Source of the DNA: Deltaproteobacteria bacterium
Lineage (GTDB): Bacteria > Myxococcota > XYA12-FULL-58-9 > JAFGEK01
Direction: 5' to 3'
DNA length: 64,000 nt
NCBI GenBank assembly: GCA_016931625.1
Contig: JAFGEK010000020.1
Span: 39,110 to 103,109 of the forward strand
In this document: in pieces, positions 37,192 through 62,547 of the stretch
Numbering within the stretch: position 1 is the stretch's first letter
Layout: each line of letters begins with the position of its first letter
Program-made: the position numbers and the translations under genes
Notes under the pieces: model-generated
Database searches by the model: none
Told to the model about the DNA's origin: nothing
The model's input: the letters and a program-made list of their open reading frames with translations, nothing else

Positions 37192-39468
37192 ATGATTGAA
37201 ACAGCCAAACAATTATTGGCTTATAATTTGCCTGAAAATATTTCATTTTCTTCAAACGAAGACCAAACTAAAATTATTAATGATAATAAAAAGAAATTAA
37301 CTCTTCCTAAAAAAAGAATTGGTTTTACTTTTGATTCATCTGTAGCTGTAGCACCAGAAGCTACTAAATCATTAGTAAAATTTTATCAAGGTATCGATAG
37401 TAATCGCGCGCATAGCGATAAAGTAACACCGGCTATTTCAGATAAAAATAAAAAGTTATACCTACCATCAAAAAGTACTTGTTTGTTTTCTGATTCATCA
37501 TTAACTATGCCATCTTCATTAAGTGTATCTTCAACACAACTGGGATTTAATCTTGTTAGTAAAAATGGCATCATCGGGAACAACATTTATTATAAAAATA
37601 TTGAGGATGTTATTGATGCGTTAAATAAAGCGAAAATGGTTCAGGATGCGAGTGCAGAAAAAATAATAAGGCAACAATTTAATGAACTTAAAAAACAATT
37701 GCCACAGTTTCAAAGAATTTTTAATGAATTACAAATCACAGAATCACATTTGTTGAAATGGTTAGCAACAGGAAGCATTCCGAACAATGTGATAGAGGTT
37801 TATATAAGGCATCAGCAGGCTGACAATAAATCAAAATATCTAGAAAAGAAAATAGCAAACAGTATTTACTTGTTACTTAAATATGGTGAGTATGTTGCCC
37901 ATTTTCGCGGCGAGATAGAAGCTGAAACAGGAGAAAATCCGCTGCTGCTTACTATGCAGGCTATGCAAACCAAATTTTGGCAAAAAGAACAAAATATTGT
38001 TGTAAGTAATGCTACAAATATTTTTTATAATCTTAAGGATAATAGATTTAAATTAGCGATGGCCGAGCATAGTCTTGATAGTTTAAACGTAAAGTTAAAC
38101 TATCAAGTCTTAAATCTATCCCCAAATGATGAAGAAATCATCAAGACACAAAAAATGGTCGAGCGTGCTAAAATAGCAATTAATAATTATAGCGATCTTA
38201 TTGCCAATCAAGAGAAAGCCGCACGTTCAGTTTTAACAAGTTTGTATCAGCGGCATGCCAAACGAGTTACCCAAAAAACACATAATAATGATCCTGAGCG
38301 CCTTAATGCTGGTCGTTATGCAGCAGCGAATGCTGTAGTGGAAGCAGATGTTAAACATAAAATTGATGCAACTGATATTGGCAATGAAATCAAAAGCGCT
38401 AAACAAATTGAGTTATTACTAATAAATATAAGAACCACACTACATTGGGTCCAAGAGACAATTTCAATCAACACATATTGGACAGAAGACAGCATTACTC
38501 GTGCTGATATAATAGAAGCTTTAGAAAAGATTAGACCACAACTGCAATCAATTCATGAGATACTGCGCAATGAAAAAGTAAATGAAATAAATGATAATAC
38601 CATCGTCGAAATAGCAAAATACTATGCAACGGCAGTTTTTTGTTTAAGTGATGCCTATGAAGCAGAGGCCGATGATCTTGAACAACAATGTCAAGTATCT
38701 GCAACCCCACAAGTGGGAGTAAGATTAGCTCTTCTCTGCCACAATGCTGCGATGTTATCACTCGAGATTGCTGAAATAGAACTTTTGGCGGCAGATGCGC
38801 GCGTCTCTATGGAAGTTGGCAAGAAAACCTTTGATGAGCAAGACGAGCAAAAACTAAATCTCCATGATTTTGTTAATTACCTCGAAGAACGAGCAGCAGA
38901 TAAGGATACCCAACTAAAAGCTTATCAAGAAACCTTAAAAAAACTTAACTCTTTACCAATATCTACCTTAGGAGCAACCTATCCAACTCAAATTTATAGT
39001 ATCGTTGGTCGTAATGAGTTGCAAATACTCTATACTACTTGGAGGTTACATAACTCCCAAAAAGAATACGACGCAATAATTAGTCAACGAGATGAGTTTG
39101 CTGCACGTCTTACCGCAGGAGCTTGGCCTGAATATCAAAAACAAAAGCTAAAACTGCAACTCTCCAAAACAGAAAAACAAAAGACTAAAGAAAATTTACA
39201 AATCAAAATTAAAATACTGGATAAAAAACGTAAGGTAGAAATTGCTCAAGAACAAAGCAACAAAGAGACGCAAAACTTTCTTGATTCTCGTATGACTGAC
39301 GTTATCATTGGCGAAGAATTTTTGATTCCGTTTAATAAAGCAAATCCGTTAATAAATCTTCAAAGTGCTGGTGTCGGCGATATCTACATAAAAGCATTTG
39401 ACGCATCTAAAAGAAATTCCATTATATGGCATCAACGTGAAATAAATGCGTTGTTAATATATTGGTAA
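37192..39468 (+). CDS. Large hypothetical protein (758 aa). Lys/Glu/Gln/Asn-rich, predicted helical or coiled-coil, no signal peptide, no recognisable domain.
   Basis: A long ORF in a low-GC island. ATG at 37192 with AGGAG 9 nt upstream (the ORF-track start at 37144 is probably too early). No catalytic motifs found by eye (no HExxH, GxSxG or CxxC). Confidence 0.6.
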   Translation: MIETAKQLLAYNLPENISFSSNEDQTKIINDNKKKLTLPKKRIGFTFDSSVAVAPEATKSLVKFYQGIDSNRAHSDKVTPAISDKNKKLYLPSKSTCLFSDSSLTMPSSLSVSSTQLGFNLVSKNGIIGNNIYYKNIEDVIDALNKAKMVQDASAEKIIRQQFNELKKQLPQFQRIFNELQITESHLLKWLATGSIPNNVIEVYIRHQQADNKSKYLEKKIANSIYLLLKYGEYVAHFRGEIEAETGENPLLLTMQAMQTKFWQKEQNIVVSNATNIFYNLKDNRFKLAMAEHSLDSLNVKLNYQVLNLSPNDEEIIKTQKMVERAKIAINNYSDLIANQEKAARSVLTSLYQRHAKRVTQKTHNNDPERLNAGRYAAANAVVEADVKHKIDATDIGNEIKSAKQIELLLINIRTTLHWVQETISINTYWTEDSITRADIIEALEKIRPQLQSIHEILRNEKVNEINDNTIVEIAKYYATAVFCLSDAYEAEADDLEQQCQVSATPQVGVRLALLCHNAAMLSLEIAEIELLAADARVSMEVGKKTFDEQDEQKLNLHDFVNYLEERAADKDTQLKAYQETLKKLNSLPISTLGATYPTQIYSIVGRNELQILYTTWRLHNSQKEYDAIISQRDEFAARLTAGAWPEYQKQKLKLQLSKTEKQKTKENLQIKIKILDKKRKVEIAQEQSNKETQNFLDSRMTDVIIGEEFLIPFNKANPLINLQSAGVGDIYIKAFDASKRNSIIWHQREINALLIYW

Positions 39469-41399
39469 AAGATGATAAGGCTAAAATATCAGAAATGTTT
39501 ACCCAGACTGCGTTGGCTTGTCTGCGACAAATATTTTTTGGTACTAATTTTGCATACAGTGAAAGCACAGGTTTCTATAAGCTGCTTGATGAAATTAAAG
39601 ACATCGTTACCATCTCGTCTCAAAATGCCGTTAGCTCTTATTATAATACAATTATGTCTGATTTGAGTTATGGGATTGAACAGATAAAAAGACAAATGTT
39701 TGATGAGCTAACAGAACAACAAACCTTTGCGACGGTTAAAGGTATAGACTGTATCAGTGATAAATATGATGCATTTCGTGATCATGGTGGTTTAGTTGTT
39801 GGTACTATTTTTGGGCGTATCAATAGAGGAATATCGCAAGATAAAAATCAACAAAAACTGTCTGATGAAATCAGTGCGCTAACAAATATTGCAAAACAAG
39901 ATTTACAAATGGCTATAGATATCTATTGTCGACTTACAAAAGAAGAGGAGCGCTTAGCTTATATAACTGCATTACGCAGCAATAACGCTGAAATGTTGTC
40001 TCAATTTTGTAATAACAATTTTTTACAAGCCCAAGCCATAATAAACGCATGGAATACTACTAATACCGGTCAATTGTTTGTTGGTACGAATGAAACTGAG
40101 GGCATATTTTTAAATGAAGCAATTACTCAAAGCCTGGATCTTACTCAAGTAGTATTTGCGCCAAATCTACCTGATGTAAATTCTCGCCTTGAAAATTTAC
40201 AGATTAGTACGGAGAAAACAACTAAAAACCTACAAGATAATTGGGTTGCTCTCCAAGTACTCGATGTTGCAACCTTGATGCTACTAGGTGGAGCCGTAGA
40301 AGCAGCTGGTGTGGCTACTCTTGCTCAAGCCAGCAATCTAGTTAAAATATCTACTACCGCCAACAACTTAAGTAAAGGGACACAAGTACTTATATTCGCT
40401 AGTCGTGGTGTTTTGGCGGTTAAAAAAGGATTCCAAACCTTTCAAAAAGCAAAAACCATACTAATTAGCCCAATACGTAACCAAGTAATTAATCTACCAG
40501 GTGTAGTAGGTACTTCTGGGCGCTTTCTTTATGATCTCGCTTATTACCGCACCATTGGGATGACACTCGATGTTATTAATACCAGTGCTCATAAAGCTTT
40601 TGGTAATGACAGTAATAGAGCCGCTTTTGTACAACTATTAGTAATGATGACCAAGCTTGGTCCCAGTTTTAATCCATATCGAATTGGCATTTCTGCAGGT
40701 TTTGAAGTTGGGATTGAAAAACTTTATCAAGAAATCGAGAAAATGCCAGAGCAGGCATTAAATCAGGCGGTCAACGGACATTTAACTCCTGCACAAGAAA
40801 AGGCACTAAAACAAAAAATGATTATGTGGCATTACATAGGTCGCGCTACAGTTGATGTTACTAAAATTTTAGTAAGACGCTGGCAACGTTATAATTCTGG
40901 TACAGAGGCAACGACCCAACAACAAGTTACTGAACTTTCAAAAGTTTTACGTAATAATGGGGCAGTTATAACCTCTGGTACGACATTAGCTCTTACCAGT
41001 TTATTGCGTGGCTATTCATTATCTCTCTGTGAAGTCGGCCATTTTCGTCAGCCACCATCAGTTTTTGAAAATTATCGTAGCTCAATAATTAAAGCATTAG
41101 GAAGTAATGCTTGCCCACGCGCACAAGTAGCATTGCGCGAGTATCTTGATGATCAATTACTGGTCCTTGCAGCAGAACGCTCAGGATTAGATAAACTTCA
41201 ACCAAATAACGATGTTGTTAACACAGAGGTACTAAATAAAAGTATTGAAAGCGTCAAAAATGATTTAATGGCGTTTGGTGTAGCGAAAACAGACGAAGAA
41301 GCCGAAAAATTAGCGCGTGAGCATATTACTAACTGTGTTTTACTTAGTGCTTTGTGTGATACTTCCAACGAAAGAACTAGTAATAAAGTCATAAAATAG
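39462..41399 (+). CDS. Large hypothetical protein (about 645 aa) with a central Gly/Ala-rich hydrophobic segment, translationally coupled to 37192..39468
   Basis: A 7-nt overlap with the upstream gene. TTG at 39462 or ATG at 39495. Central segment VLDVATLMLLGGAVEAAGVATLAQA. No recognisable domain. Confidence 0.55.
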   Translation: MVKDDKAKISEMFTQTALACLRQIFFGTNFAYSESTGFYKLLDEIKDIVTISSQNAVSSYYNTIMSDLSYGIEQIKRQMFDELTEQQTFATVKGIDCISDKYDAFRDHGGLVVGTIFGRINRGISQDKNQQKLSDEISALTNIAKQDLQMAIDIYCRLTKEEERLAYITALRSNNAEMLSQFCNNNFLQAQAIINAWNTTNTGQLFVGTNETEGIFLNEAITQSLDLTQVVFAPNLPDVNSRLENLQISTEKTTKNLQDNWVALQVLDVATLMLLGGAVEAAGVATLAQASNLVKISTTANNLSKGTQVLIFASRGVLAVKKGFQTFQKAKTILISPIRNQVINLPGVVGTSGRFLYDLAYYRTIGMTLDVINTSAHKAFGNDSNRAAFVQLLVMMTKLGPSFNPYRIGISAGFEVGIEKLYQEIEKMPEQALNQAVNGHLTPAQEKALKQKMIMWHYIGRATVDVTKILVRRWQRYNSGTEATTQQQVTELSKVLRNNGAVITSGTTLALTSLLRGYSLSLCEVGHFRQPPSVFENYRSSIIKALGSNACPRAQVALREYLDDQLLVLAAERSGLDKLQPNNDVVNTEVLNKSIESVKNDLMAFGVAKTDEEAEKLAREHITNCVLLSALCDTSNERTSNKVIK

Positions 41400-46702: not shown

Positions 46703-49700
46703 TTAATTAACTTCATCCGGTCCAATATCAAAAATACCATCACTTGACGGCCGAGTCTGCTGTTCAATATCTTGGCTAATATTAGAGGTACTATTATCTA
46801 ATGACGCACCATTATTTCGTGCTGGCGACACTGCCGATAAACGCGTTTGAGAATAATCCCAATTTGCACTAGGCTCGACTAAAAATGGGTCTACAATAAG
46901 ATTGCTTGTGATATTTGGTGTGCCAGCAATTTGATTAATAGTTGCGGCAGAGTAGGTGACCATACTCGTCTCTGGGCCAATAGCCACATAGACGGGTACA
47001 TCACTAGTCGCTAAGTCGTCTTTAGCAATGTACATCAAGTTATGACTAAATCTCGCCATATTGCTCTCTTGTGTGCTAGTTATTTCAAGCACCGCTAATC
47101 GCCGCGACTCATCGATGCTATTGCCTATATTAAATATATTATTAACCAAGCTTATGCCGTCATTGTTGATTTGGTTGAGGTAAATCGCAGTCTGGAGTTG
47201 CCCTGGCGCTGCTAATGCAGTTTCTGGGCTAACCGCAAATAGATTATGATAGGCAGCAACACCAGTTCCGCCATTTTGCCACAAAGCTATCAAATGCTGC
47301 CCCCGATTTGATAAGAATACATTATTAGTAAGTAGTGGGGCGCTGATAGTAGTTGGCGTATCAATCATCGCTGCAGCGCAATTAGTTTGTATTTTGGTTG
47401 TTGAAGCTGTCAGTGTAGGCAAAACACACGAAACTCCGTTAGCATCAAAAAGAGTGCCGACTTGATTGCCAGAGCTAGTACTTAACTCAGTGGTATCGCG
47501 AAAAGCAATAGCGACAATATCGGCGCTAGTATCACTGCCTGAGGTTATGTAGTACCCAGCTCGTATTTCGTTATTGTTAACCACTGCACCGCTGTTGTTT
47601 ATTAACCATAAGCCGGTGGCATGAAGTGGATCAGAAGTAATGTTAGAATTTAATGCGGTTGTTGGTCCACCAGTAATAGCTCCAAAGCCGTAACTGCTGG
47701 CGGATTTACCATTATTTACAATAGAAGCTGTGTTTGTGCCATATAGCAGTAATCCAACAGCGACTAACGGTCCGCCACTGCTTGGCATGTTAAACGCCAT
47801 GTCGGCAATTAAATGATTATTGATAATTTGCAAGTTATAGGAGTTGCCAGCAGTAACAGCTAGACGACTAACATTATCATAACTTGCGTCAATGATGCCG
47901 GCACATAAAAGCCGGCCGGCTTCTTGGTTGGTGATAATAGCATCATTGTCTGCAATTATAGTATTGTCTGAGTGGTCAATACGAATAGCTGCCGAGACGT
48001 CTGCACTCCCGCTAGCGGATATTTCATCATTAGCAAGTATGCTGGCGCTAGGTCTCCCGCCATTAACGGTAGTCATATTAATACCAATTGCTTGAGTAGT
48101 AGTATTACTTGTGCTGCTACCTGAGGCCGAAATCTTTTTAATATGTTGAATGGTAGCACTTGCATTATCTACAATTGCTACCGCTAAACATTCATTAGTA
48201 CAATTTTGTGCTGAAATTGATTCAAGACCATCTAAAACTAAATTCGCTCCATTAGTCTCAGTCGCCTCTACGCGAGCAGCGTTTAATAATGCTCCACCGG
48301 TGACAGTAATTGTGCCGCCGCGCATTTGCAGTTGTGCGGGGATGGCCGTAGTACCGGTCACATAAAGGCCACGGACTGTTGCTGCGTCTGCTGCTATGCT
48401 TTGCAAAGTACAATTAGACAGTAAAACAGTGCTGCCGCTATTATATACTGCTCCTGCAGAGGCATTTTGCGATACTATATTAAGACCAGAAATAGTGCCA
48501 TTATACCCAGAAGAAAAAGTCAATGTCGGTTCAGTATTTGTTACTATGTTGCTACTTTGTAATGTTGCCAAAGGTGTAGTAGCCGGTGTGGTGGCATTAA
48601 CGAAACCAAAAATGCTCGGATGATGGGGTGGGTTAGAATGTTGCTGTGGATTTAATACAAACGGCCCGCGAAAATCATCGCTACCTAATATGCAGATATT
48701 CGTGCCATCATTCCAGGCTTTATTTAAAGCGTTAATAAGTGGCCCCATAGTATTGGAAGCATCGCTACCACTACCATTACCACTGCCGCCATTAGTAGCC
48801 CAAACGCAATTTTCACTGATGATATAAATATTAGCAGTGTCAATTTTTGCACCGTCACTAACGCTAACCGTAATGAGATGAGGAGTAGGGTTTGCCGCTG
48901 GTATAACTGCAGTTACACTGCGCTCCAAGGTAGTGTCAGTGGTATTGCAGGTTCCACTACCAGTGCAAATTAATAAGTTATCGTTATCGGTCCAGCTAAA
49001 ATCCCAACTATTGCCATCTATATCAGCCGCAGTGACAGCGAGTGTAATTTGGCTATCAGCTATTGCCAGCACATACCAATCTTGACCAACAAGACGAGCA
49101 TTGCTGACCTGAATTATTTCTGGGGCATCGTTATTGATAATCAATGACAAACTAGCATCAACGCCATTGCCATCAGCGCCGAGTGTAACGCTATATGTAC
49201 AACTATCGACCGTATCATTAGCAACGATAATAGTAATGTCATAATTATCACCGTTGTTACTAAGAGCCGTATTAATGTCGCTACTATTACATCCACTGGT
49301 TGCTGCAACACTAAGAGCAGCATTAGTTACCGGAACACTATGTTGAATAAGCGCACTAAAGTGGCGCGTTTCATTTGGATGCAAGCTAATCGTTGATCCC
49401 GAAGTAGTTAAACTTACAGTATAAGGAGGGCATAACTCGTCAATCGTTTCATCACAATTATTATCGATACTATCATAGCAAATCTCAGTATTTAACGGTG
49501 AACGGCGATAATCAGTATCGTCACAGTCTTGAGTATGTAATATATATTGGTCGCAATTAGCGAAAGCACCATCAGCGTCAAGATCACGGCAGATAGCACA
49601 GCGCCCCCAAACGTCAGGATCATTATCATTGCAATCATCGCCTAGACCGGCTGGGCTCTGTGGACAAATATTCGGACTGCCAATAATTATTTTTTGGGCA

Positions 49701-50074
49701 TCGCAATGCTCATCCAAATCACTGTCGCAACCGTTATCTATAACTCCATCGCAATCGTTATCTAAATTATCGCAAAGTTCATTTGTGGGTAAATAATTGT
49801 CATAAGCCTCAATGCATTGATTGTCTTGGTTACATAACAATTGATTATTACTGCATAAACCGTTCAAATTAGTAGCTGGTTGGCTGGTACAACCTTCATC
49901 AATGACTCCATCACAATTATTATCGATACCATCGCAAATTTCATTTGTGGGTATACAAGTGTTTTGCTCTGTCTCGATTGGGATGTTAATGATTTCAGTT
50001 TTAGGAGTACGGCTCGTACAATTTGCTAATAAAATCGTTAAAATTGTAAAACTCAACAACCAATTGCACTGCAT
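46703..50074 (-). CDS. Giant surface lipoprotein (about 1123 aa). It has N-terminal MopE-type Cys/Asp repeats (CDGxDNxCDGxIDxGC) and a Thr/Ser/Asn/Gly-rich right-handed beta-helix-like body.
   Basis: ATG at 50072-50074 with AAGGAGG 5 nt upstream. Lipobox LLANC. Three or more copies of E[IL]CDx[IL]DN[ND]CDG[VT]IDxGC plus CNDNDPDVWGRCAICRDLDADG. The remainder is low complexity with ...NxxxN.../beta-helix periodicity. The ORF-track start at 50218 has no signal peptide. Confidence 0.7.
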   Translation of the reverse strand: MQCNWLLSFTILTILLANCTSRTPKTEIINIPIETEQNTCIPTNEICDGIDNNCDGVIDEGCTSQPATNLNGLCSNNQLLCNQDNQCIEAYDNYLPTNELCDNLDNDCDGVIDNGCDSDLDEHCDAQKIIIGSPNICPQSPAGLGDDCNDNDPDVWGRCAICRDLDADGAFANCDQYILHTQDCDDTDYRRSPLNTEICYDSIDNNCDETIDELCPPYTVSLTTSGSTISLHPNETRHFSALIQHSVPVTNAALSVAATSGCNSSDINTALSNNGDNYDITIIVANDTVDSCTYSVTLGADGNGVDASLSLIINNDAPEIIQVSNARLVGQDWYVLAIADSQITLAVTAADIDGNSWDFSWTDNDNLLICTGSGTCNTTDTTLERSVTAVIPAANPTPHLITVSVSDGAKIDTANIYIISENCVWATNGGSGNGSGSDASNTMGPLINALNKAWNDGTNICILGSDDFRGPFVLNPQQHSNPPHHPSIFGFVNATTPATTPLATLQSSNIVTNTEPTLTFSSGYNGTISGLNIVSQNASAGAVYNSGSTVLLSNCTLQSIAADAATVRGLYVTGTTAIPAQLQMRGGTITVTGGALLNAARVEATETNGANLVLDGLESISAQNCTNECLAVAIVDNASATIQHIKKISASGSSTSNTTTQAIGINMTTVNGGRPSASILANDEISASGSADVSAAIRIDHSDNTIIADNDAIITNQEAGRLLCAGIIDASYDNVSRLAVTAGNSYNLQIINNHLIADMAFNMPSSGGPLVAVGLLLYGTNTASIVNNGKSASSYGFGAITGGPTTALNSNITSDPLHATGLWLINNSGAVVNNNEIRAGYYITSGSDTSADIVAIAFRDTTELSTSSGNQVGTLFDANGVSCVLPTLTASTTKIQTNCAAAMIDTPTTISAPLLTNNVFLSNRGQHLIALWQNGGTGVAAYHNLFAVSPETALAAPGQLQTAIYLNQINNDGISLVNNIFNIGNSIDESRRLAVLEITSTQESNMARFSHNLMYIAKDDLATSDVPVYVAIGPETSMVTYSAATINQIAGTPNITSNLIVDPFLVEPSANWDYSQTRLSAVSPARNNGASLDNSTSNISQDIEQQTRPSSDGIFDIGPDEVN

Positions 50075-50325
50075 ACCCGCCTCCTTAAGACAGCGGTCGT
50101 GCTTCTTTTTCCTTGCGCGAAGTGTCGCTATACTTATTTTTATGGCAACACTTTGCATATACTTATAGATCGTAGCCGAAATCCGCGCAGATGCAATTAT
50201 CAAAACTATCATGCTCATTTTGAATAATTTCGAATCTATTCAATAGGAAACTGCTCTAAGCGGTTGCGTCGCGGGTCATCGGTGTGGTACAGCGCCCGCT
50301 TTGTTGGTGATGGAGGTTTTTGGTA

Positions 50326-53687: not shown

Positions 53688-54187
53688 ATTTCTTTAGACG
53701 ATACACCGCACTTACTAGTAAACTAAAATATAACAAGACGATTTTATGTCTTGAACGTTAATTAAATACAGTTAGTTCTGTTAAAAGTTTTGGTGGAGTG
53801 ATGGTGCGATGATCGGGCCCCCTTTGGCGGTTGGCAATTTCGCGAAAAAAGAATAACCCAATCATCACACCACCGCTCAACCAAAATATAAGATAGAGCA
53901 AGGTAGAAAAGTCTTATACTCGATTTGATCAGTGGCTGAAAAGTACACAAAAGGTTTTTTAAGAGCAGCAGAATTGTAAATTTATTGTTAAAATTATAAA
54001 AAACCAATAAAATCAACGAATAAGCTAGGCGATCAAGGACTTAAAACGTACAAAAACCTGTATAAAAACTTAAATCGCGATTTGATGCGTAAATGGTAGG
54101 TTTTTTCGTAAAAATGCCATGTTGTAAGCAAAAAAGCGGACTATACCTAATAACAATGGTAGGGTGTTTGAATAATAAGGAGTCTCT

Positions 54188-55987
54188 ATGGAGCGAGTTG
54201 AGGGTGAAGCTAAAACCAGACGATACCCACGTGTACCATTTCACACTCATGTCGATGTAAGCGGTAATTCATTAAACATTGCTGGGTTTACTAGCAATAT
54301 TAGCCGTGATGGTTTGGCTTTTAGTCTACCGCTTAAAGATTTGGGCGAAAAAGCTGGTAGATTGCCGGTAGGTACTGAATTAGCTCTGCGTTTGCATCTT
54401 CCAACTCTTCAGGCTCCATTGATCATTAAATGTCAAGTAGCTTGGACTGGCCAGCCTGCCAGAGATTCTGCAGGACGACTTGCGGTTCGTATGGGAGTAC
54501 ATTTTTGTTCCGAACAACCCAGTGTCGACCAAGCTGTTGTCGAGCTTATGGCCAGTTTTCGTCATCGTATAGCTATTATTGATTTTCCTGTAATTGAAAA
54601 AATTAAAGAGACATTAGATGATTTATATCCAATCGAAGAGATAAAGGACCTTGAGACATTAAATACTTCGATGTCTCGCAGTGAAGTCGGATTAATTGTT
54701 ATTGGCAACGGTAAAGGAGATGATGTTTTAATTAAAACGGTTATTGAAATTTTACGGTACACGCAAGTAGAAATTCAACCACCATTATTAGTATGTGTGC
54801 CCGAAGATTCGAAAGCTTTTTCTCAGCTTCCCCCTGATAAATTTAATGTTTTATTTGCCCGCTGGCCAATTAGTGCCTTAGAACTGCGTGCTTTGGCAGT
54901 CAGAAGTGTTGAAAGCCATGCTGTAGCTTTAGAAAATGCCAGATTAAGGTTTGAACTAGAAGGTATGGTTGAACGGCTACAACGTGAAAACCAATTTTTC
55001 AGAGGTAAATTTGTCACCGGCTCTCGTTTTGAAGGAATAATTGGTGATAGTGCACCAATGCGACGCTTATATGAAACTGTTGAACGGGTAGCAGCTTCGG
55101 ACGCGAATGCTATTATTTTAGGTGAAACAGGGACAGGCAAAGAGCTAATCGCTCGTGCTTTATTTTTGCATAGTCGTCGTGCAGATAAACCATTTCTTGC
55201 GCAAAACTGTGCTGCACTTTCAGAATCTTTGCTGGATAGCGAATTATTTGGTCATTGTCGTGGCGCTTTTACCGGCGCGGTTTTGGATCACGCTGGTTTA
55301 TTTGAAGCTGCTGATGGCGGTACCATTTTTTTAGATGAAGTTGCTGAGATGAGTCAGACTATGCAAGCAAAGCTTTTGCGCGTATTACAAAATAAGGAGC
55401 TTCGTCGCATAGGTGAAACTAAAATTCGTCAAATTGATGTACGGGTAATATGTGCAACTCATCGTAATCTTGAGACGATGATTGCCGATGGCAGATTTCG
55501 GGCTGATTTATATTATCGCATTGCGGTTATTTCATTACACATACCACCATTACGTGAACGTCGTGATGATATTCTTGCCTTAGCTACACACTTTTTGGCG
55601 CATTTTGCGGCAGAAAATGGTACCGAGCCCGTAATGGTATCGGCTGAAGCAATGAGATTGTTAGAAGCATATTCATGGAAAGGTAATGTGCGTGAATTGC
55701 AGCACTCTATGGAAAAGCTTGCCATGTTGACTCCGAAAGGAGCACGAATTACTGCTGAAAGTGTTGCTGATATTTTAGGGCGCGAAAAATTAAGCTCGCA
55801 ACAGATAGAAGATCTACAAGAAACCATGCCTTTAGACGCAGCACTTGAAGATTGTGAAAAAAGACTTATCGAAAGAGCCCTGCGTATCAACCAAGGGGTT
55901 ATTGCTAAAGCAGCACGTACTCTTGGAGTAAATCGCAGTACCTTATCAAAGCGTTGCCGACGTTTAGGAATTCAAGCAACTGAATGA
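54188..55987 (+). CDS. Sigma-54-dependent transcriptional activator with an N-terminal PilZ domain (PilZ / linker / AAA+ sigma54-interaction domain / Fis-type HTH)
   Basis: PilZ motifs RRYPR (RxxxR) and NISRDGLAF ([DN]xSxxG). AAA+ motifs GETGTGKELIARALF (Walker A), GAFTGA (the sigma54-contact loop), FLDEV (Walker B). C-terminal HTH VIAKAARTLGVNRSTLSKRCRRLGI. Confidence 0.85.
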   Translation: MERVEGEAKTRRYPRVPFHTHVDVSGNSLNIAGFTSNISRDGLAFSLPLKDLGEKAGRLPVGTELALRLHLPTLQAPLIIKCQVAWTGQPARDSAGRLAVRMGVHFCSEQPSVDQAVVELMASFRHRIAIIDFPVIEKIKETLDDLYPIEEIKDLETLNTSMSRSEVGLIVIGNGKGDDVLIKTVIEILRYTQVEIQPPLLVCVPEDSKAFSQLPPDKFNVLFARWPISALELRALAVRSVESHAVALENARLRFELEGMVERLQRENQFFRGKFVTGSRFEGIIGDSAPMRRLYETVERVAASDANAIILGETGTGKELIARALFLHSRRADKPFLAQNCAALSESLLDSELFGHCRGAFTGAVLDHAGLFEAADGGTIFLDEVAEMSQTMQAKLLRVLQNKELRRIGETKIRQIDVRVICATHRNLETMIADGRFRADLYYRIAVISLHIPPLRERRDDILALATHFLAHFAAENGTEPVMVSAEAMRLLEAYSWKGNVRELQHSMEKLAMLTPKGARITAESVADILGREKLSSQQIEDLQETMPLDAALEDCEKRLIERALRINQGVIAKAARTLGVNRSTLSKRCRRLGIQATE

Positions 55988-55999
55988 ACGTAAAGTAAA

Positions 56000-56027
56000 G
56001 TAGGGGCTAATAATTATTAGCCCCTAC
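56000..56027. terminator. Perfect 28-nt palindrome GTAGGGGCTAATAATTATTAGCCCCTAC, a bidirectional intrinsic terminator between convergent genes
   Basis: A 12-bp GC-containing stem around an AATT centre, with A/T-rich flanks on both sides. It sits between the activator stop (55987) and the SCPU gene stop (56027). Confidence 0.6.
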
Positions 56028-56563
56028 TACCATTGTACAGTTGCTACAATAGTATCGAGATAGTTACCAGCCGGTATGTCTTGGCCTGGTGGTATTCGCC
56101 CATAAATAGTTACAGTTACATTTGAGTTTTTTGGCGGTATAGTTTGGTAATAAGTAGTACCTTCTGTACCATCTCCCCATATATTACTATGTGCTGCGTC
56201 TAAATAGAGATTGTATTGTTGCACATAAGCACCACTTTGCATTTGGCGCGGATTATAGCTGGTAGCACTACCACGGCTAAGGGTTATTAATACGGGATCT
56301 CCATTTACTTGACGACAACGATAAGTGATGCTGCCGGTTGAATCAGTTGGAGTGGCGTTAAAAACATCGTAGGTGCCAAAATTAATGCCTACAGTACCTC
56401 GAATATTACATTTTATCGCCAAGGCAGTATTAGATGCTGCAAACAAAAGAAATACACCAAAAACAAATGCAATAAGTGGTGTTCTTCTTTTAAACCAACC
56501 ATTTGTTTTTTGCCTTGCCTGTTTAAAAATGAGGCGCGGTTGAAAACGGTGGCATATATGCAT
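56027..56563 (-). CDS. Spore-coat-protein-U (SCPU) domain pilus subunit (Csu-type, distal or tip-associated)
   Basis: A signal-peptide-like segment, then the SCPU pattern ...YNLYLDAAHSNIWGDG...GRIPPGQDIPAGNYLDTIVATVQW. Confidence 0.7.
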   Translation of the reverse strand: MHICHRFQPRLIFKQARQKTNGWFKRRTPLIAFVFGVFLLFAASNTALAIKCNIRGTVGINFGTYDVFNATPTDSTGSITYRCRQVNGDPVLITLSRGSATSYNPRQMQSGAYVQQYNLYLDAAHSNIWGDGTEGTTYYQTIPPKNSNVTVTIYGRIPPGQDIPAGNYLDTIVATVQW

Positions 56564-56743: not shown

Positions 56744-57283
56744 TTACCATTGTAATGTTGCAACGATGGTATCGTGGTAATTACCTGCTGGTATATCTTG
56801 CCCTGGGGGTATACGTCCATAAATAGTAACAGTTTCGGTTCTGAAATTAGGCGGGACAGTTTGAAAATACGAACTACCTCCTGAACCATCACCCCATATG
56901 ATGGTGCGGGATGCATCGAGATAAAGATTATATTGTAAGGTGAATCCACCATTTTGCATTCGTCTAGGAGTATAACTTGCGGCACCACCACGACTGAGGG
57001 ATAATCTTACTGAAGCGCCTCCGACAAAAAAGCAGAAATAGCTGAAACTGCCAGTCGAATCAGTGGGAGTACTATTAAATACATCATAAGCCCCAAAATT
57101 TATTCCCGTCGATTGGGTAATAAAACAATAAATCGCATGTGCATTGGTAGGGGCAAATAGTAAAAAAAGTAAGATAAACACTGATAGAATATTAAATCTA
57201 CTTAATGTCTTTTTATCATTATAGCTGATAGGTCGGGGTTTAACGACCTTATCAAATTTTTTTATTCCGAAATGGCAATACAT
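56744..57283 (-). CDS. SCPU-domain pilus subunit (paralog of 56027)
   Basis: ...YNLYLDASRTIIWGDG...GRIPPGQDIPAGNYHDTIVATLQW, the same C-terminal pattern. Overlaps the usher gene by 22 nt. Confidence 0.7.
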   Translation of the reverse strand: MYCHFGIKKFDKVVKPRPISYNDKKTLSRFNILSVFILLFLLFAPTNAHAIYCFITQSTGINFGAYDVFNSTPTDSTGSFSYFCFFVGGASVRLSLSRGGAASYTPRRMQNGGFTLQYNLYLDASRTIIWGDGSGGSSYFQTVPPNFRTETVTIYGRIPPGQDIPAGNYHDTIVATLQW

Positions 57284-59646
57284 TTAACTACTCCCAAGTC
57301 GATAAATTGTTCGTCTTTTTGTGGTACAACTAAAGCAAAAATGCAGTTTGTACCGCTATAATATATTGTAGCCTGATAAGTTCCTGAGCGCAGGTTTTCA
57401 AAATAAAATTCAGCATTCGCGCCAAGAGGTGATGTCATAATGCCATTGTTGGTCGCGATGGTTAAATCTCCATAATTTGGTTGAAGTATTTCGTCATCCT
57501 TGATGAGAATGATTTTGCCGATAATAGCTTGCATTTTACGCATCTTTGGCTCTACTAATGCTCCACCTCTATATGGTGGAGCAACTATTACTTCCGATTG
57601 CTCAATTTCATAATTAAAAGGAACATCAGCATCACTTATACTTATGCGATTGCCATAATATGGTAATAAATTGGGCACTAAAAATTCTCCACTAGCATCA
57701 GTTTGACCAATAATTTGATTGTCTAGTAATACGGAGACATCGGGTGTTTTTGGTAAACGTACTAATGCAAAACTATTACTTATTGGTCTGCTGGCTTTAA
57801 GCGACCCGTCAAGCCAAACTAAAGAACCAGTTGCACTTACACTGCCGGTGTTCTGTGCACCATACTCATTATGGATACCATCATAGCTAGCTTCATAGCG
57901 TCCATAATCCCATTGATACTGCATTAACGCCCGTGCGGCACCACCACCAGCGTTAAATGTTTGTAATTCAGAGCGGTAACCGATGCCTTCATTAGGAGGT
58001 AAGGGTTTTTGCATTTGAAAAGTTGTAGTGGCATTTGCACCAGTTTGATGTGATACCGCGGCGCTAGTCGATTGCGGCATTGTGTAAGTCAAGCCTATAA
58101 AAGCAGAGGTAGTAGTTGAATTATCTTCAATTGTTAAATCTGTTGTTAAAAAGAAACTTAACGCACCAAGCTGCCAATTAGTATTAACCGAAAATTGATG
58201 TGTGGCGGTATGGTTCTGATGCACACCTAAATCATAATGTAGTGACAAACCTACACCAAAAGGTAATGGTAATGAAATAAAAGCTGCAGCATCGATAGGT
58301 AATTTTTCAATTTCAGTCGATGAATTAAGGCTGGTGTAAGCATTGTTTTGCACTTGTAGCGAGCCGCCAAAACTAAGATATCGACTAGAGTTAGTATAGA
58401 TTAACGCTCCGGCAGAACCAGTGCGGTTTTCACTAAAACTCATGGCGCCTGCAAGCTCTAATTCACCAATAGGTAAACCCAAGCTAATGGTAGGACCAAA
58501 ATTAGTTTGCCATGGTGTGGCATCAGTGCGACCACCAACCGTCAACCAATCATTAACACCTGTGCGGTAATATCCAAGAACTACAGCTTTACCATAGTCA
58601 AAACTTTTTTGGGTGTTTTCGCGTAGGACCCCTAGATTGACCGAAAATTCCGTAATATCTGGCGATAATAAAGATGCTGCAAAATAATAAGGCGAAATTA
58701 TTTCACGACTTTCGCCAAAAGCATCACGCATAATTACTTCTACCGAACCTCGACCTACTGGTGTTGGAATATTTTCAATATTAAAAGGTCCTGGCGGCAA
58801 TTGTTCACGCCGCAGAAATATCCCATTACGATAAATTTCAATAGTTGCTGGGGTTAATACTGAACCTGAAATACCATGTCCTGGTTGCCGTAAAAAATAG
58901 GGGTCAAGAGCAAAATTACGTGCAACGCTAATACCCGCAAATTGTGCGCTACTACCTAAAAGTCCGGTACTAGCTTGCGCGTCACCAAGAGTCCAGCGCG
59001 TTAGATTTTCTGTGTCATCATAAACAAAATAACTTGGTCCGCGAACAAATTCACCTAAAGTAGTACGTCTGACGCTGTTATAAAGTAGTCCCCAAGGTGA
59101 ATTAAATGCCAACTCAGAAAACCCACTAAAATCGGTACTATTGCTCCAATCAATAGCATAATTTAATAATAGACTGTTATCACGTGGATATTGGATATCC
59201 TTGGGTCGATTAGACCTCATGCTAATAGTCGTCGGTGCAAAAAAATCAGGGGCAGCAGTTAAGCTTAAACTAAGTGTTTGCTCGTCAAAGGTATAAGTTA
59301 TTTTTGGCGCTAACGATTTTAACAACACCATGTCTTCGCCATAAAAAATATTATAAGTACCTTTGGTTTCTTTAATGCCTGCAGCAAGTAAGTCATTAAC
59401 TCGCAAATAAATATCCTTATTAAGTAAATAGATTAACACTTCACCCTTGGGTACTGAATTTACCGACATTGGTACTACTATGGGTAAGGGTAACATAGTG
59501 GGATCTTCAGGTAGATCAGAGATGGCTAATGCTGGCAGACTAATAAAGAAGATAAATATAAATACAGTTCGTTGATGCCGCGCCAAGAGTCGGAATATAA
59601 AATAAAAATAACGTGCTAAAGCACCTATTTTAAGGCCCACATACAT
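57262..59646 (-). CDS. Fimbrial outer-membrane usher protein
   Basis: About 790 aa, signal peptide, large beta-barrel. Positioned between the chaperone and subunit genes as in csuD/fimD-type systems. Confidence 0.75.
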   Translation of the reverse strand: MYVGLKIGALARYFYFIFRLLARHQRTVFIFIFFISLPALAISDLPEDPTMLPLPIVVPMSVNSVPKGEVLIYLLNKDIYLRVNDLLAAGIKETKGTYNIFYGEDMVLLKSLAPKITYTFDEQTLSLSLTAAPDFFAPTTISMRSNRPKDIQYPRDNSLLLNYAIDWSNSTDFSGFSELAFNSPWGLLYNSVRRTTLGEFVRGPSYFVYDDTENLTRWTLGDAQASTGLLGSSAQFAGISVARNFALDPYFLRQPGHGISGSVLTPATIEIYRNGIFLRREQLPPGPFNIENIPTPVGRGSVEVIMRDAFGESREIISPYYFAASLLSPDITEFSVNLGVLRENTQKSFDYGKAVVLGYYRTGVNDWLTVGGRTDATPWQTNFGPTISLGLPIGELELAGAMSFSENRTGSAGALIYTNSSRYLSFGGSLQVQNNAYTSLNSSTEIEKLPIDAAAFISLPLPFGVGLSLHYDLGVHQNHTATHQFSVNTNWQLGALSFFLTTDLTIEDNSTTTSAFIGLTYTMPQSTSAAVSHQTGANATTTFQMQKPLPPNEGIGYRSELQTFNAGGGAARALMQYQWDYGRYEASYDGIHNEYGAQNTGSVSATGSLVWLDGSLKASRPISNSFALVRLPKTPDVSVLLDNQIIGQTDASGEFLVPNLLPYYGNRISISDADVPFNYEIEQSEVIVAPPYRGGALVEPKMRKMQAIIGKIILIKDDEILQPNYGDLTIATNNGIMTSPLGANAEFYFENLRSGTYQATIYYSGTNCIFALVVPQKDEQFIDLGVVKCIAISE

Positions 59647-60400
59647 TTACTGGGAGATCCATGCTCTTGGTCACTGTAGTAAAATCGGTTTCAATGTTTA
59701 AATTTAATGCTTTGCTATTTTTACATTCATCTGCAGTTAATTCCACATTGTAGATTCTTTGGCCGCCTGAAAGGACATACCAACCATCAAAGCTTTGCTC
59801 CTTTATTATGGAGCCTTTGGTATTAGTGATCGAGTAATTAATTTTACGTAAAGAAAAATGCACATTACCTGTATTTAATATGGCAAAACTCACCTGGTGT
59901 TTAGCTAGCACTATTTTTTCGATACTGACACTATGTTTAGCGGTGCCCTGATGAATAAAAATTGGGATACCCAGCTCGGTTAATATTCTTAACTGATTAC
60001 CTTCAGCAGTATTTTTGTCTTTATTATCTGGCGGTAGTTCAGTGACAAATATGCGATATGATTTTTCTATATCACTAGCTTTCACTCTTGTACCCACACG
60101 GATATTTCTTTTCTCTTTAGGTTGAAGCATTAATAAGGTTGGAAAGAAAACAATATCCTGTGTAGGTTTTAATACCATTTCACCATTGTTTTTCTGATCC
60201 CAAGAAAACCCACGTACCTGCAAACGCAGGGTTTCAGCACTATCATTAGTTATCATTAATAAAGTGCTTGAGGTATCTGACGATAGTGTGACTTGCACCG
60301 GTTTGACACTAAATGTGCTTGCAAGTGCAGGGTTAGTTATAAGGAGTAAGTAAGCGGTCAGGATGGGGTAGAGGCAGCGCATGCATAGATTGTAAAGCAA
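59630..60400 (-). CDS. Periplasmic pilus chaperone (PapD/CsuC-like)
   Basis: About 250 aa with a signal peptide. The N-terminal domain FSVKPVQVTLSSD...LLMITNDSAETLRLQVRGFSW is a CsuC/PapD-like beta-sandwich pattern. Overlaps the usher start. Confidence 0.7.
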   Translation of the reverse strand: MLYNLCMRCLYPILTAYLLLITNPALASTFSVKPVQVTLSSDTSSTLLMITNDSAETLRLQVRGFSWDQKNNGEMVLKPTQDIVFFPTLLMLQPKEKRNIRVGTRVKASDIEKSYRIFVTELPPDNKDKNTAEGNQLRILTELGIPIFIHQGTAKHSVSIEKIVLAKHQVSFAILNTGNVHFSLRKINYSITNTKGSIIKEQSFDGWYVLSGGQRIYNVELTADECKNSKALNLNIETDFTTVTKSMDLPVNVCGP

Positions 60401-60427: not shown

Positions 60428-60931
60428 TTAGAAGTTTACAGTAGCTACTACGGTATCATTGTATGAGCCGGCTGGTACATCTTGACCGGCGCTAACGCGA
60501 CCGTAAACCGTAAAGGGGCGAGGGGCGCTACTGGGTGCTGGAGCTGGAGTTAGCAAATCAGGAGCCGCATCACCCCATGAAGTCGTTCTGCCTGCATCTT
60601 GGTAAAGGTCATATTCTAAATAACCAGTGCCACCGTCATTCATCCGTCGTTGGGTACCAGAAGCATTGACGCCAAGACCAAGACCTATTGTTGTCGTTGC
60701 TCCTTGGGTACAGGTCACAGTCACAGTGCCAGTTGCATCTAGGTCGACGGCCGCGTTAGCGACGATAGGATCGTAGGTGCCAAATGCCAGCGCTGCGGTG
60801 GTGATACTGCAATTATTAACTACTACAGCGCTAACATCGAGGTTGGCAGTAGCAGTAGCAGCCAAAGCTGACGAAGAAATCGCAGTTAAAAAAGCGATGG
60901 TTACTAAACTAATTTTGAATGATTTTGCCAT
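60428..60931 (-). CDS. SCPU-domain major pilin (CsuA/B-like)
   Basis: ATG at 60929-60931 with GGAG upstream, and signal peptide MAKSFKISLVTIAFLTAISSSALA. ...YDLYQDAGRTTSWGDA...GRVSAGQDVPAGSYNDTVVATVNF. The ORF-track start at 61027 would swallow the predicted sigma-54 promoter. Confidence 0.75.
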   Translation of the reverse strand: MAKSFKISLVTIAFLTAISSSALAATATANLDVSAVVVNNCSITTAALAFGTYDPIVANAAVDLDATGTVTVTCTQGATTTIGLGLGVNASGTQRRMNDGGTGYLEYDLYQDAGRTTSWGDAAPDLLTPAPAPSSAPRPFTVYGRVSAGQDVPAGSYNDTVVATVNF

Positions 60932-60989
60932 TTCCGTGCTCCAGTCTAACGCATCCGCAATGCGTGTGTTTTCTTGGATAAATAGTAGA

Positions 60990-61004
60990 GCATTTTTGGT
61001 GCCA
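60990..61004 (-). promoter_or_regulatory. Candidate sigma-54 (-24/-12) promoter. The minus strand reads TGGCACcaaaaATGCT, driving the pilin-chaperone-usher operon.
   Basis: GG-N10-GC spacing is exact. The -24 TGGCAC is perfect and the -12 ATGC has one mismatch to TTGC. It lies about 58 nt upstream of the pilin ATG. Confidence 0.55.
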
Positions 61005-61264
61005 ACTATTAAAATGGTGTTTGGCACTTTTTACATACGAAAAAGTATAATAAAAACAAGGTATTATAATATTGCAGGTGGTAGCTATGGTTACATTAAC
61101 TATGCATATTTTACATAGTTGCGTGTCGATATTCACGCATTTTTAAGGTATTTAAGCAAAATATTCATGCTGATATTATACACCGACATACATGACATGC
61201 TTAATAATTATTCTAAATGTGTTGAATGCACGGAGATGTTTAATAATTTTAGAGAATGGATGGA

Positions 61265-61681
61265 TTAGAAATTCAAAGTAGTGATTACTGTCGAAGCTGG
61301 GGTATTCGAAGCTAGAAGATAATCAGTATCGGTTGAAGTACTAGCTAACATAACGCGTGAGACGTGGATTGCATTTTGGTCAGGCGATGTATTGGAATTG
61401 AGTTTAATGTGCGATGACGTAACTTTGTTTATATCCGTACGTGCGCTAGTAAGCGGATGTATGGTTCCTCTAGTGCATCTGACGGTAATGTTACCTTCGA
61501 GTGTGTCGTTAATGGCTGACGCAGAATTTGCAATTGCACAAGTTGGCATCACTTTAACGCTGACAGTAAGTCTATCACTCTTAGCGGCAAAAACCGTCTG
61601 GCTGCTGAAAAAAACTGAAAATGTAACAAGTAACCAACGCATACTTATTGTTATAAGCAAGGGCAATGCCAAGTTAGGCAA
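61265..61681 (-). CDS. Divergent SCPU-like pilus subunit (minor pilin)
   Basis: Signal peptide (MRWLLVTFSVFFSSQTVFAA), two Cys, and the C-terminal beta-strand ...TVITTLNF, which resembles the SCPU ending. First gene of the cluster. Confidence 0.5.
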   Translation of the reverse strand: MPNLALPLLITISMRWLLVTFSVFFSSQTVFAAKSDRLTVSVKVMPTCAIANSASAINDTLEGNITVRCTRGTIHPLTSARTDINKVTSSHIKLNSNTSPDQNAIHVSRVMLASTSTDTDYLLASNTPASTVITTLNF

Positions 61682-61989
61682 TATCTATAACTAGTTAATA
61701 ATAATAGACTATTAACACAGCATAGGTTATTGCTATGGCTTATCTATGGGGATGCCCTAGGACTCTGGGTCTTTTCTACTTGTAGGTAAATATCTTACTC
61801 TTTACAATGCAGTATTTGTCTATCCAGTATAACTCCTTGATTTGCTAATAATTACCCAAAGTTATAAACAATACTCGATCGCCTTTAAAAAAACTGTTTT
61901 AGAACTTTTGCAGAATGATTTGACGCCTGACTGTGATTATGAAATACAGTTTGCTCTTTTTGGACCAACAAAAACCCAAAGGAGAAGGT

Positions 61990-62547
61990 ATGAGGTATAT
62001 AGATCTTTCGCGTTGTCTGCTCGTAGCGTTTTTTGGTTTAGCGATCGCTGTGGGTCAGCCCGGTTGCGCAACTACCAAAGCTGGTGGTGATGCTCAAGCT
62101 AGTGCTGAAGGTGGCGATGCTGAAGAACCAAACCCCCTCGGTGAAAATCTGGCACTTAACAAGCCAGCAGTCAGTTCTTCTGACGAAAAAGCCGAAATGG
62201 CACCAAAATATGCGGTTGATGGTGATCTCAGCACTCGTTGGGGTTCAAACTTCTTTACTGATCCTGACCCAACAGTTGGCTGGATTTATATAGATTTAGG
62301 CGAAGTCAAGACTATCGGTACCGTAGTTATTACCTGGGAAGCCGCTTATGGTCTTGAGTATCAAATTCTCGTTTCTGACGATGCCAAAGAATGGAAAGTC
62401 GCTTATCACGAGAAAGATGGTCACGTAGGCCGTTCAGTACACAAAATCGACCCTCCAGTTCAGGGTCATTATGTTAAACTCCTTGGTATCAAACGTGGTA
62501 CTGCCTATGGCTATTCACCATGGGAAATCGAAGTATACGAGAAATAA
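61990..62547 (+). CDS. Lipoprotein with an F5/8 type C (discoidin) domain
   Basis: ATG at 61990 after GGAGAAGG. Lipobox AVGQPGC. ...AVDGDLSTRWGS...WIYIDLGEVKTIGTVVITWEAAYGLEYQILVSDD..W is the discoidin/F5-8C consensus. Confidence 0.7.
   Translation: MRYIDLSRCLLVAFFGLAIAVGQPGCATTKAGGDAQASAEGGDAEEPNPLGENLALNKPAVSSSDEKAEMAPKYAVDGDLSTRWGSNFFTDPDPTVGWIYIDLGEVKTIGTVVITWEAAYGLEYQILVSDDAKEWKVAYHEKDGHVGRSVHKIDPPVQGHYVKLLGIKRGTAYGYSPWEIEVYEK

Follow-up and report, generated by a model that had tools for sequence, protein, structure and literature searches.

To our knowledge, the characterised regulators of the enhancer-binding protein type (EBP; AAA+) that respond to c-di-GMP (cyclic dimeric guanosine monophosphate), such as FleQ/FlrA, VpsR, Nla24 and BerB, all sense the nucleotide without a PilZ domain, and MrkH, the only PilZ transcription factor characterised, does not use sigma-54. 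The gene described here encodes a protein in which a PilZ domain precedes a complete sigma-54 activator. It lies in a stretch of 64,000 nt (positions 39,110 to 103,109 of contig JAFGEK010000020.1, assembly GCA_016931625.1, Deltaproteobacteria bacterium; hereafter the window) and is followed, tail-to-tail, by a chaperone-usher pilus operon. Its product, referred to below as the EBP, consists of a PilZ domain, a degenerate receiver (REC), a long helix, a sigma-54 AAA+ domain and a Fis-type helix-turn-helix (HTH), in this order, and is a candidate for a c-di-GMP-gated activator.

Closest described systems

FleQ, as well as VpsR, Nla24/EpsI and BerB, resembles the EBP in being a sigma-54-type AAA+ regulator with a degenerate receiver-like N-terminus; these regulators are c-di-GMP-responsive and control surface and biofilm functions. 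The c-di-GMP contacts of FleQ are L142F143R144S145, KExxxR185N186 and E330xxxR334 (PMC7288161). FleQ thus holds c-di-GMP on the AAA+ domain, by the LFRS segment, the RN following Walker A and the ExxxR segment, whereas the candidate sensor of the EBP is a separate PilZ domain.

Chaperone-usher fimbriae of Klebsiella pneumoniae are switched on by the PilZ protein MrkH (PMC12564702, PMC12943098). MrkH is similar to what is proposed here as a c-di-GMP-responsive PilZ activator of a chaperone-usher operon, and is a fold neighbour of the EBP PilZ domain (5kgo, TM-score 0.67). It differs in being small, composed of two beta-barrels without AAA+ or HTH_8, and in working with the non-sigma-54 holoenzyme; its target is type 3 fimbriae, as opposed to the Csu/SCPU pilus found here.

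With regard to the remaining part of the protein, the activators NtrC1, NtrC4 and DctD (1NY5, 3DZD, 4L4U) have the same layout of REC, linker helix, AAA+ and HTH with intact GAFTGA and Walker motifs, and come up among the top structural matches to the full-length EBP, some relatives of which appear from their sequences to have kept a phosphorylatable REC. PixA of Myxococcus xanthus, a PilZ-REC protein, binds c-di-GMP through RxxxR (PMC8316039). It has the same N-terminal PilZ-then-receiver module as the EBP, with the difference that PixA is a stand-alone protein with an intact receiver and no AAA+/HTH output, and regulates motility rather than transcription.

The sole combination of PilZ with a sigma-54 EBP discussed in the literature searched is MXAN_2902 of M. 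xanthus, from the same broad 'deltaproteobacterial'/myxobacterial setting. Kuzmich et al. 2021 (PMC8316039) give its PilZ domain as a predicted non-binder of c-di-GMP, and it is devoid of the c-di-GMP motifs (PMC8844925), whereas the EBP has both; the two proteins were compared by description. Under the two conditions that Kuzmich et al. tested, development was not altered by deletion of MXAN_2902, although the gene had been linked to fruiting-body morphology in an earlier study (PMC8316039, PMC8844925). Experiments on a PilZ-EBP with intact motifs were not found in the literature searched, the coverage of which was incomplete, so an earlier census-level mention of this architecture is possible.

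The PilZ domain and its c-di-GMP motifs

The PilZ domain (PF07238) was called by Pfam in the EBP at 44.4 bits, above the gathering cutoff of 22.5 bits (E=2.2e-11). A separate AlphaFold2 (AF2) model of aa 1-125, with a predicted local distance difference test value (pLDDT) of 84 and a predicted template modelling score (pTM) of 0.76, comprised six strands and a C-terminal helix. When this model was compared with the PDB using Foldseek, the top 40 neighbours were all canonical PilZ domains, most of them solved with c-di-GMP (TM-score <=0.69), and a non-binding Xanthomonas PilZ was found at rank 47 (E 0.11). The named fold neighbours of the model are BcsA, YcgR, MotI, PA0012, VCA0042, Alg44, MrkH, MapZ and PlzA.

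The register of the two motifs was examined with a profile of the N-terminal half of the family searched against PDB sequences. The RxxxR motif of the EBP is in register with RQYPR of PA0012, the structure of which was solved with c-di-GMP (PDB entry 8u0i), and with RNSHR of the AcsA PilZ domain (4i86), and NISRDG is aligned with DLSDTG of PA0012, NISAGG of MotI (5vx6) and DLSMGG of solved PilZ domains. The distance from R15 to N37 is 22 residues in the EBP, the equivalent being 23 in PA0012 (RQYPR-23-DLSDTG, read from the alignment). The N-terminal tail bearing RxxxR was disordered in the AF2 models (low pLDDT for residues 1-10/13), as expected of an apo PilZ domain. In the 57 aligned relatives N/D37 is conserved in 45, S39 in 44 and G42 in 49. 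These observations on alignments and models suggest that the PilZ domain of the EBP is an intact-looking candidate sensor of c-di-GMP.

An earlier note on this stretch, made from the letters alone, had proposed an open reading frame (ORF) at 54188-55987 on the plus strand with a PilZ domain at the N-terminus of its product. The exact coordinates of the ORF, with 599 codons for amino acids, were confirmed, all the motifs quoted (RRYPR, NISRDG, GETGTGKE, GAFTGA and FLDEV) were located in the protein, the PilZ assignment passed the Pfam threshold, and RxxxR and [DN]xSxxG turned out to align with the c-di-GMP-contacting motifs of PA0012, AcsA and MotI.

The middle region as a receiver without phospho-acceptor

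The region of aa 125-280 gave no match to Pfam or to PDB sequences. In the full-length AF2 model it contains five beta-alpha units at aa 127-225, and the best full-length structural matches found by Foldseek were the REC-AAA+ activators NtrX, NtrC1 (1NY5, 'inactive state') and NtrC4. The alignments to REC-AAA+ structures span 400-496 columns, in comparison to approximately 245 for the AAA+ domain alone. Among the 57 aligned relatives, 14 carry DD / xD / S/T-A / K-P exactly at the receiver signature positions, and each of the five signature-bearing relatives tested received a Pfam Response_reg call of 35-77 bits at residues ~120-240, in a PilZ-REC-AAA+-lid-HTH_8 layout. The EBP itself has D132-F133 / G173-N174 / C203 / W226-P227 at these positions, so that the acceptor Asp, the Thr/Ser and the conserved Lys are all lost.

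As judged from the relatives and the model, the middle region is a true REC homologue, and it is called here a pseudo-receiver (a fossil receiver) because these three residues are gone. Since a REC homologue without the acceptor Asp cannot be phosphorylated there, phosphorylation would be unavailable as an input to the EBP. The description of a degenerate receiver-like region of about 130 aa with no phospho-acceptor context, given in the earlier note, is therefore borne out by the (beta-alpha)5 model, the signature of the relatives and G173/N174 at the acceptor position. In the long helix that joins the pseudo-receiver to the AAA+ domain, residues E256, L257, R263, L264, E267, N268 and R272 are invariant within the close family.

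The AAA+ output domains and the FleQ-type site

The C-terminal part of the EBP has the features of a sigma-54 activator: an AAA+ domain with Walker A and Walker B, the GAFTGA loop and a C-terminal Fis-type HTH. The intact AAA+ domain and HTH that had been predicted from the motifs were recovered by Pfam at 230 bits (Sigma54_activat) and 42 bits (HTH_8), respectively, and the PDB matches of the AAA+ domain were NifA, ZraR, FleQ and NtrC1, each with E<=1e-64.

The possibility of a FleQ-type c-di-GMP site in the AAA+ domain was rejected on the basis of the alignment, in which the contact segments are replaced by RFE282G, KELIARA and H468FLAH472. Since the FleQ contact residues are replaced, FleQ-style binding of c-di-GMP by the EBP is unlikely, and the contrast with FleQ drawn in the earlier note is justified.

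The PilZ-EBP family

An identical protein is already present in NCBI as MBN1959612.1, 'MAG: sigma 54-interacting transcriptional regulator [Deltaproteobacteria bacterium]' (MAG, metagenome-assembled genome). No NCBIfam equivalog reached its cutoff with the EBP, and it is thus not an orthologue of any named EBP, for example NorR, NifA, NtrC or PspF. The EBP is a member of the uncharacterised 'PilZ-NtrC' enhancer-binding protein family.

To estimate the size of the family, 1.84 billion representative proteins were searched exhaustively in HMMER using a profile of the N-terminal module; there were 2435 matches at E<=1e-3 and 135 at E<=1e-10. Among the best 150 matches, 50 were full-length (512-624 aa) and had Walker A at residues ~230-325, and a GAFTGA-type loop was present in 48 of these 50, with variants such as GSFTGA allowed. 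Matches of ~235 aa with PilZ and a weak REC call were also obtained. The architecture is therefore no isolated fusion but that of a real, moderately populated and mostly metagenomic family, with 50 or more representative clusters. A scan of GTDB species genomes with the EBP alone gave only matches at the AAA+/HTH level (residues 245-596) and no full-length relative.

Strict RxxxR together with [DN]xSxxG was found in 21 of the 48 non-truncated members, including the EBP and its 67%-identical orthologue; a further 16 have RxxR with [DN]xSxxG, and 5 have neither Arg motif. Seven relatives (P0131, P0132, P0135, P0136, P0143, P0176 and P0199) combine a motif-intact PilZ domain with a receiver that has the acceptor Asp and the Lys, and the five of them that were checked gave Pfam calls for both PilZ and Response_reg. 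By their sequences these seven are potential dual-input (phosphorylation and c-di-GMP) sigma-54 activators.

Four relatives of 540 aa (P0010-P0013) start in the middle of the PilZ barrel and show no RxxxR, NxSxxG or Pfam PilZ call; they represent either mis-called starts or naturally truncated variants.

In the earlier note the protein was interpreted as a candidate c-di-GMP-gated activator, in which the nucleotide would control sigma-54-dependent transcription through PilZ rather than AAA+. The domains, the motifs, the pseudo-receiver and the contrast with FleQ stood up to analysis, and the novelty proved smaller than implied, the family being catalogued and a motif-less member having been published.

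The convergent pilus operon and its promoter-like sites

The EBP gene is separated by a 39-nt gap from a Csu/SCPU-type ('archaic') chaperone-usher operon on the minus strand, in the order SCPU subunit, PapD-like chaperone, usher and two further SCPU subunits. The first subunit of the core operon is the probable major pilin. A hairpin between the convergent stop codons is probably a bidirectional terminator, and its position makes the EBP gene and the pilus operon separate transcription units.

The same convergent arrangement of EBP, SCPU and usher genes was found at the 67%-identical orthologue P0002 (locus L001), whose contig has 62% GC in comparison to 40% GC in the window. Since the SCPU subunit there is only 50% and the usher 52% identical and the GC contents are so far apart, the pairing of regulator and pilus has survived a large divergence. 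The palindrome is missing from the 16-nt gap of the orthologous locus.

Sigma-54-like sites were searched for in the whole window with TGGCAC-N5-TTGCW, allowing one mismatch or none. Four sites were found against 3.4 expected by chance. As the count is not above chance, only the position and strand of the sites at the head of the operon are notable: three of the four have GG/GC intact, and two of these three lie on the minus strand at the pilus operon head. The tail-to-tail chaperone-usher cluster (three SCPU subunits, PapD-like chaperone and usher, 39 nt away) claimed in the earlier note was thus found as described, and its sigma-54 promoter has a counterpart in two well-placed sites, such sites being at chance level in number across the window. 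The near-consensus site at 39539(+) falls within a coding sequence, and GG is absent from the one at 22182(-); both were treated as chance occurrences.

Transcripts from the distal of the two sites at the operon head would have almost no leader before the small secreted ORF, which matched the major subunit in BLASTP with E=0.009 only. Several short repeats, direct as well as inverted, lie in the AT-rich sequence at 61024-61258, upstream of the promoter-like site at 60989-61004. Examples are ATATTCACGC / ATATTCATGC at a distance of 32 nt and GACATGCTTAATAATT / GAGATGTTTAATAATT at one of 39 nt. The repeats are statistically unremarkable and lie at a distance suitable for enhancer or integration host factor (IHF) sites.

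The link between the EBP and the pilus is based on the synteny with one orthologue and the promoter-like sites. On this basis the convergent operon is proposed as the most probable target of the EBP, with about even odds of being the true one.

Near-consensus sigma-54 sites 13-14 nt before called starts were noted at two separate loci, L007 (5225-5240(+) and 10516-10531(-)) and the window (61656-61671(-)), which would imply either nearly leaderless sigma-54 transcripts or mis-called starts. Divergent from the head of the pilus cluster, at 61933-62547 (+), lies a gene for a small F5/8 type C (discoidin, carbohydrate-binding) protein with an N-terminal hydrophobic segment.

Other gene neighbourhoods were seen at more distant relatives. 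The ~43%-identical P0004 and P0009 (perhaps also P0008) adjoin a gene for a glycoside hydrolase of family 44 (GH44; L003 279-2750 and L004 7662-9872, possibly L007 2-1783), and no sigma-54 site with up to one mismatch was found upstream of these GH44 neighbour genes. P0005 (L005 11951-17696) is located directly upstream of a complete chemosensory cluster consisting of CheW, a methyl-accepting chemotaxis protein with CHASE8, a CheA-CheY hybrid and a CheB-like protein. The convergent gene beside P0128 does not encode an SCPU subunit.

Table 1. Location of the EBP gene, its domains and motifs, and the features of the convergent pilus locus in the window
Feature	Position	Strand	Description
Ribosome-binding site AAGGAG	54177..54182	+	6 nt before the ATG of the EBP gene; read from sequence
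EBP gene	54188..55987	+	599-aa PilZ / pseudo-receiver / sigma-54 AAA+ / HTH_8 enhancer-binding protein; ORF and Pfam domains
PilZ domain, aa 10-119	54215..54544	+	Six-stranded barrel aa 21-106 and C-terminal helix aa 111-124; PF07238
RxxxR motif R11-R12-Y13-P14-R15	54218..54232	+	aa 11-15, in the disordered N-terminal tail
[DN]xSxxG motif N37-I-S39-R-D-G42	54296..54313	+	aa 37-42, 22 residues past R15
Pseudo-receiver, aa 126-229	54563..54874	+	(beta-alpha)5 fold; AF2 secondary structure, Foldseek, relatives
Long linker helix, aa 230-274	54875..55009	+	45 residues, joins pseudo-receiver to AAA+; AF2
Sigma-54 interaction AAA+, aa 284-450	55037..55537	+	PF00158, Sigma54_activat, Pfam 230 bits
Walker A GETGTGKE, aa 312-319	55121-55144	+	
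GAFTGA loop, aa 359-364	55262-55279	+	
Walker B FLDEV, aa 381-385	55328-55342	+	
AAA+ lid, aa 456-537	55553..55798	+	Pfam AAA_lid_14, 76.7 bits
Fis-type HTH, aa 553-592	55844..55963	+	Pfam HTH_8, 42 bits
Hairpin	55999..56028	.	Perfect 13-bp palindrome AGTAGGGGCTAAT-AATT-ATTAGCCCCTACT, 4-nt loop; between the convergent stop codons
SCPU subunit	56027..56563	-	Last operon gene; Pfam SCPU 107.6 bits; 50% identical orthologue beside P0002 in L001
SCPU subunit	56744..57283	-	Pfam SCPU 101.4 bits
Outer-membrane usher	57262..59646	-	Pfam Usher 105.3 bits; 52% identical orthologue in L001
PapD-like periplasmic chaperone	59630..60400	-	Pfam PapD_N 49.4 bits
SCPU subunit with signal peptide	60428..60931	-	First core-operon gene; Pfam SCPU 121.8 bits; likely start ATG 60931 after GGAG
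Sigma-54-like site TGGCAC-CAAAA-ATGCT	60989..61004	-	TGGCACCAAAAATGCT; one mismatch, GG/GC intact, ~58 nt upstream of ATG 60931
Small secreted ORF	61265..61642	-	125 aa from ATG 61642; weak SCPU-like segments, no Pfam match
Sigma-54-like site TGGCAT-TGCCC-TTGCT	61656..61671	-	TGGCATTGCCCTTGCT; one mismatch, 14 nt upstream of ATG 61642

Proposed mechanism

The explanation favoured here, with a probability of roughly 0.5, is that the EBP is a c-di-GMP-gated PilZ-EBP with a dead receiver, acting most probably on the convergent pilus operon. As regards ligand binding, the direction of regulation, the allosteric route and the target, we infer the following sequence of events. In the ligand-free protein, the AAA+ domain would be kept as an inactive dimer by the pseudo-receiver and the long linker helix, similarly to NtrC1 and DctD. 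The nucleotide would be clamped between the N-terminal tail bearing RxxxR, which is flexible, and the NxSxxG strand of PilZ, and the repositioned PilZ domain might then act on the fossil receiver in place of phosphorylation. Hexamer assembly and ATPase activity would be released by this repositioning or, with lower probability, blocked, and the altered oligomerisation or ATPase activity of the AAA+ domain would control open-complex formation by the sigma-54 RNA polymerase. High c-di-GMP would thus switch the adhesive pilus on, by the logic of MrkH and type 3 fimbriae carried out via sigma-54.

It is also tentatively proposed, as a possibility short of even odds, that the PilZ domain took over the input of the fossil receiver, which would put sigma-54 at the Csu/SCPU operon under direct c-di-GMP control. 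The sisters in which PilZ and REC are both intact (for example P0131, P0132, P0135, P0136 and P0143) would then be dual-input proteins that integrate phosphorylation and c-di-GMP.

Alternative explanations

Several observations weigh against the c-di-GMP-gated activation of the pilus operon. With respect to the target, the number of sigma-54-like sites is at chance level, no enhancer motif shared by the upstream regions of the two promoters was found above shuffled controls, and the adjacency to SCPU and usher genes is limited to the 67%-identical orthologue, the more distant relatives having unrelated neighbours. No rpoN and no GGDEF/EAL genes were seen in the ORFs scanned, which covered part of the window. 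With respect to the mechanism, the full-length AF2 model (pLDDT 77.6) has a pTM of 0.43, at which interdomain geometry and contacts are unreliable. With respect to the ligand, the alignments of the motif half to PDB PilZ domains are weak one by one (E 0.1-1); all of them tell the same story, which is also that of the significant Pfam PilZ call. When residues 47-115, the C-terminal half of PilZ, are compared with PDB sequences, the nearest is the Xanthomonas PilZ, a non-binder (E ~2e-7). Strict RxxxR is missing in over half of the relatives and, as only 21 of 48 have the strict motifs and 16 have RxxR, ligand binding is no family-wide constraint. Finally, PlpA of M. xanthus possesses the motifs and reportedly did not bind c-di-GMP in vitro (PMC8316039).

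The last three of these points would be accounted for if the PilZ domain did not bind c-di-GMP and served as an interaction or structural module, as in the PilZ proper of Xanthomonas and Pseudomonas, PlpA and MXAN_2902, with the EBP controlled by a partner or constitutive. The match to TIGR02266 (Myxococcus paralogous PilZ-like domain), which stays below its cutoff (35.9 versus 68.7 bits), and the prediction of MXAN_2902 as a non-binder (PMC8316039, PMC8844925) point in the same direction. This explanation is considered rather unlikely, given that the EBP and its orthologue keep all the canonical contact motifs at canonical spacing, nearly identical to that of PA0012, that the PilZ model is structurally nearer to ligand-binding PilZ domains (ranks 1-40) than to the Xanthomonas PilZ (rank 47), and that the N-terminal tail is present, in contrast to type II PilZ proteins, which have no such tail. 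If c-di-GMP does bind the PilZ domain, it could also inhibit the EBP, so that the pilus or another regulon would be on at low c-di-GMP, as in the action of FleQ on flagellar genes; c-di-GMP inhibits the FleQ ATPase (PMC12564702). The sequence is compatible with either sign of regulation. Activation is favoured by the typical induction of adhesive chaperone-usher pili at high c-di-GMP. A precedent is provided by MrkH (PMC12943098). Moreover, in layouts of the NtrC1/DctD type the regulatory module represses as long as no signal is received, and 1NY5 is one of the top structural matches, which makes inhibition improbable.

Two further explanations assign the input to another domain. The EBP would be a conventional response regulator if its middle domain were phosphorylated by a histidine kinase, the PilZ domain being accessory. 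The homology of this domain to REC, the full phospho-acceptor signature of 14 of the 57 relatives and the hybrid histidine kinase encoded elsewhere in the window (15827-18544) would fit, but G173/N174 at the acceptor position, W226 in place of Lys and C203 in place of Thr/Ser, together with the lack of a Pfam Response_reg call in the EBP and of an adjacent kinase gene, make this very improbable. Sensing of c-di-GMP by the AAA+ domain in the manner of FleQ, with the PilZ domain irrelevant to ligand sensing, is regarded as the least probable of all. The AAA+ domain shares ~45% identity with its FleQ counterpart and has kept the Arg of the KExxxR that follows Walker A, but LFR144S is changed to RFE282G with reversal of charge, KExxxRN to KELIARA and E330xxxR334 to H468-FLA-H472.

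Other genes in the window

Genes for Ser/Thr protein kinases are located at 3175-5043 and 18537-20228 (one with PEGA repeats), and the hybrid histidine kinase at 15827-18544 is PAS-rich with REC and Hpt domains. With these kinases, the window resembles myxobacteria in its signalling genes, although its GC content is 40%. Large ORFs with no Pfam match at E<=1e-5 are present at 37144-39468 (774 aa), 39462-41399 (645 aa), 10095-11507 (470 aa) and 23640-25055 (471 aa). A 1171-aa ORF at 46703-50218 (-), upstream of the cytochrome bd oxidase genes, has one MopE-type putative metal-binding motif as its sole Pfam match.

Significance

The novelty of the EBP is limited: its family is catalogued, though uncharacterised, a member without the motifs has been published, and the protein itself has an NCBI entry with a generic name. 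The novelty that is left is mechanistic and experimental. A PilZ-gated sigma-54 activator is not known to have been demonstrated, and the EBP, with its intact motifs, dead receiver and plausible sigma-54 target next door, is a reasonable experimental candidate. The practical value is modest. The protein comes from a MAG of an uncultured organism, but the protein, its PilZ domain and the promoter are small enough for heterologous testing. If the favoured explanation is true, the commonest c-di-GMP receptor module would be shown to be able to drive an AAA+ remodelling machine, and a receiver domain would be shown to be kept as an allosteric relay after the loss of phosphorylation. The branches of the family with intact, half-intact and degenerate versions of both inputs provide a natural series for the study of input swapping.

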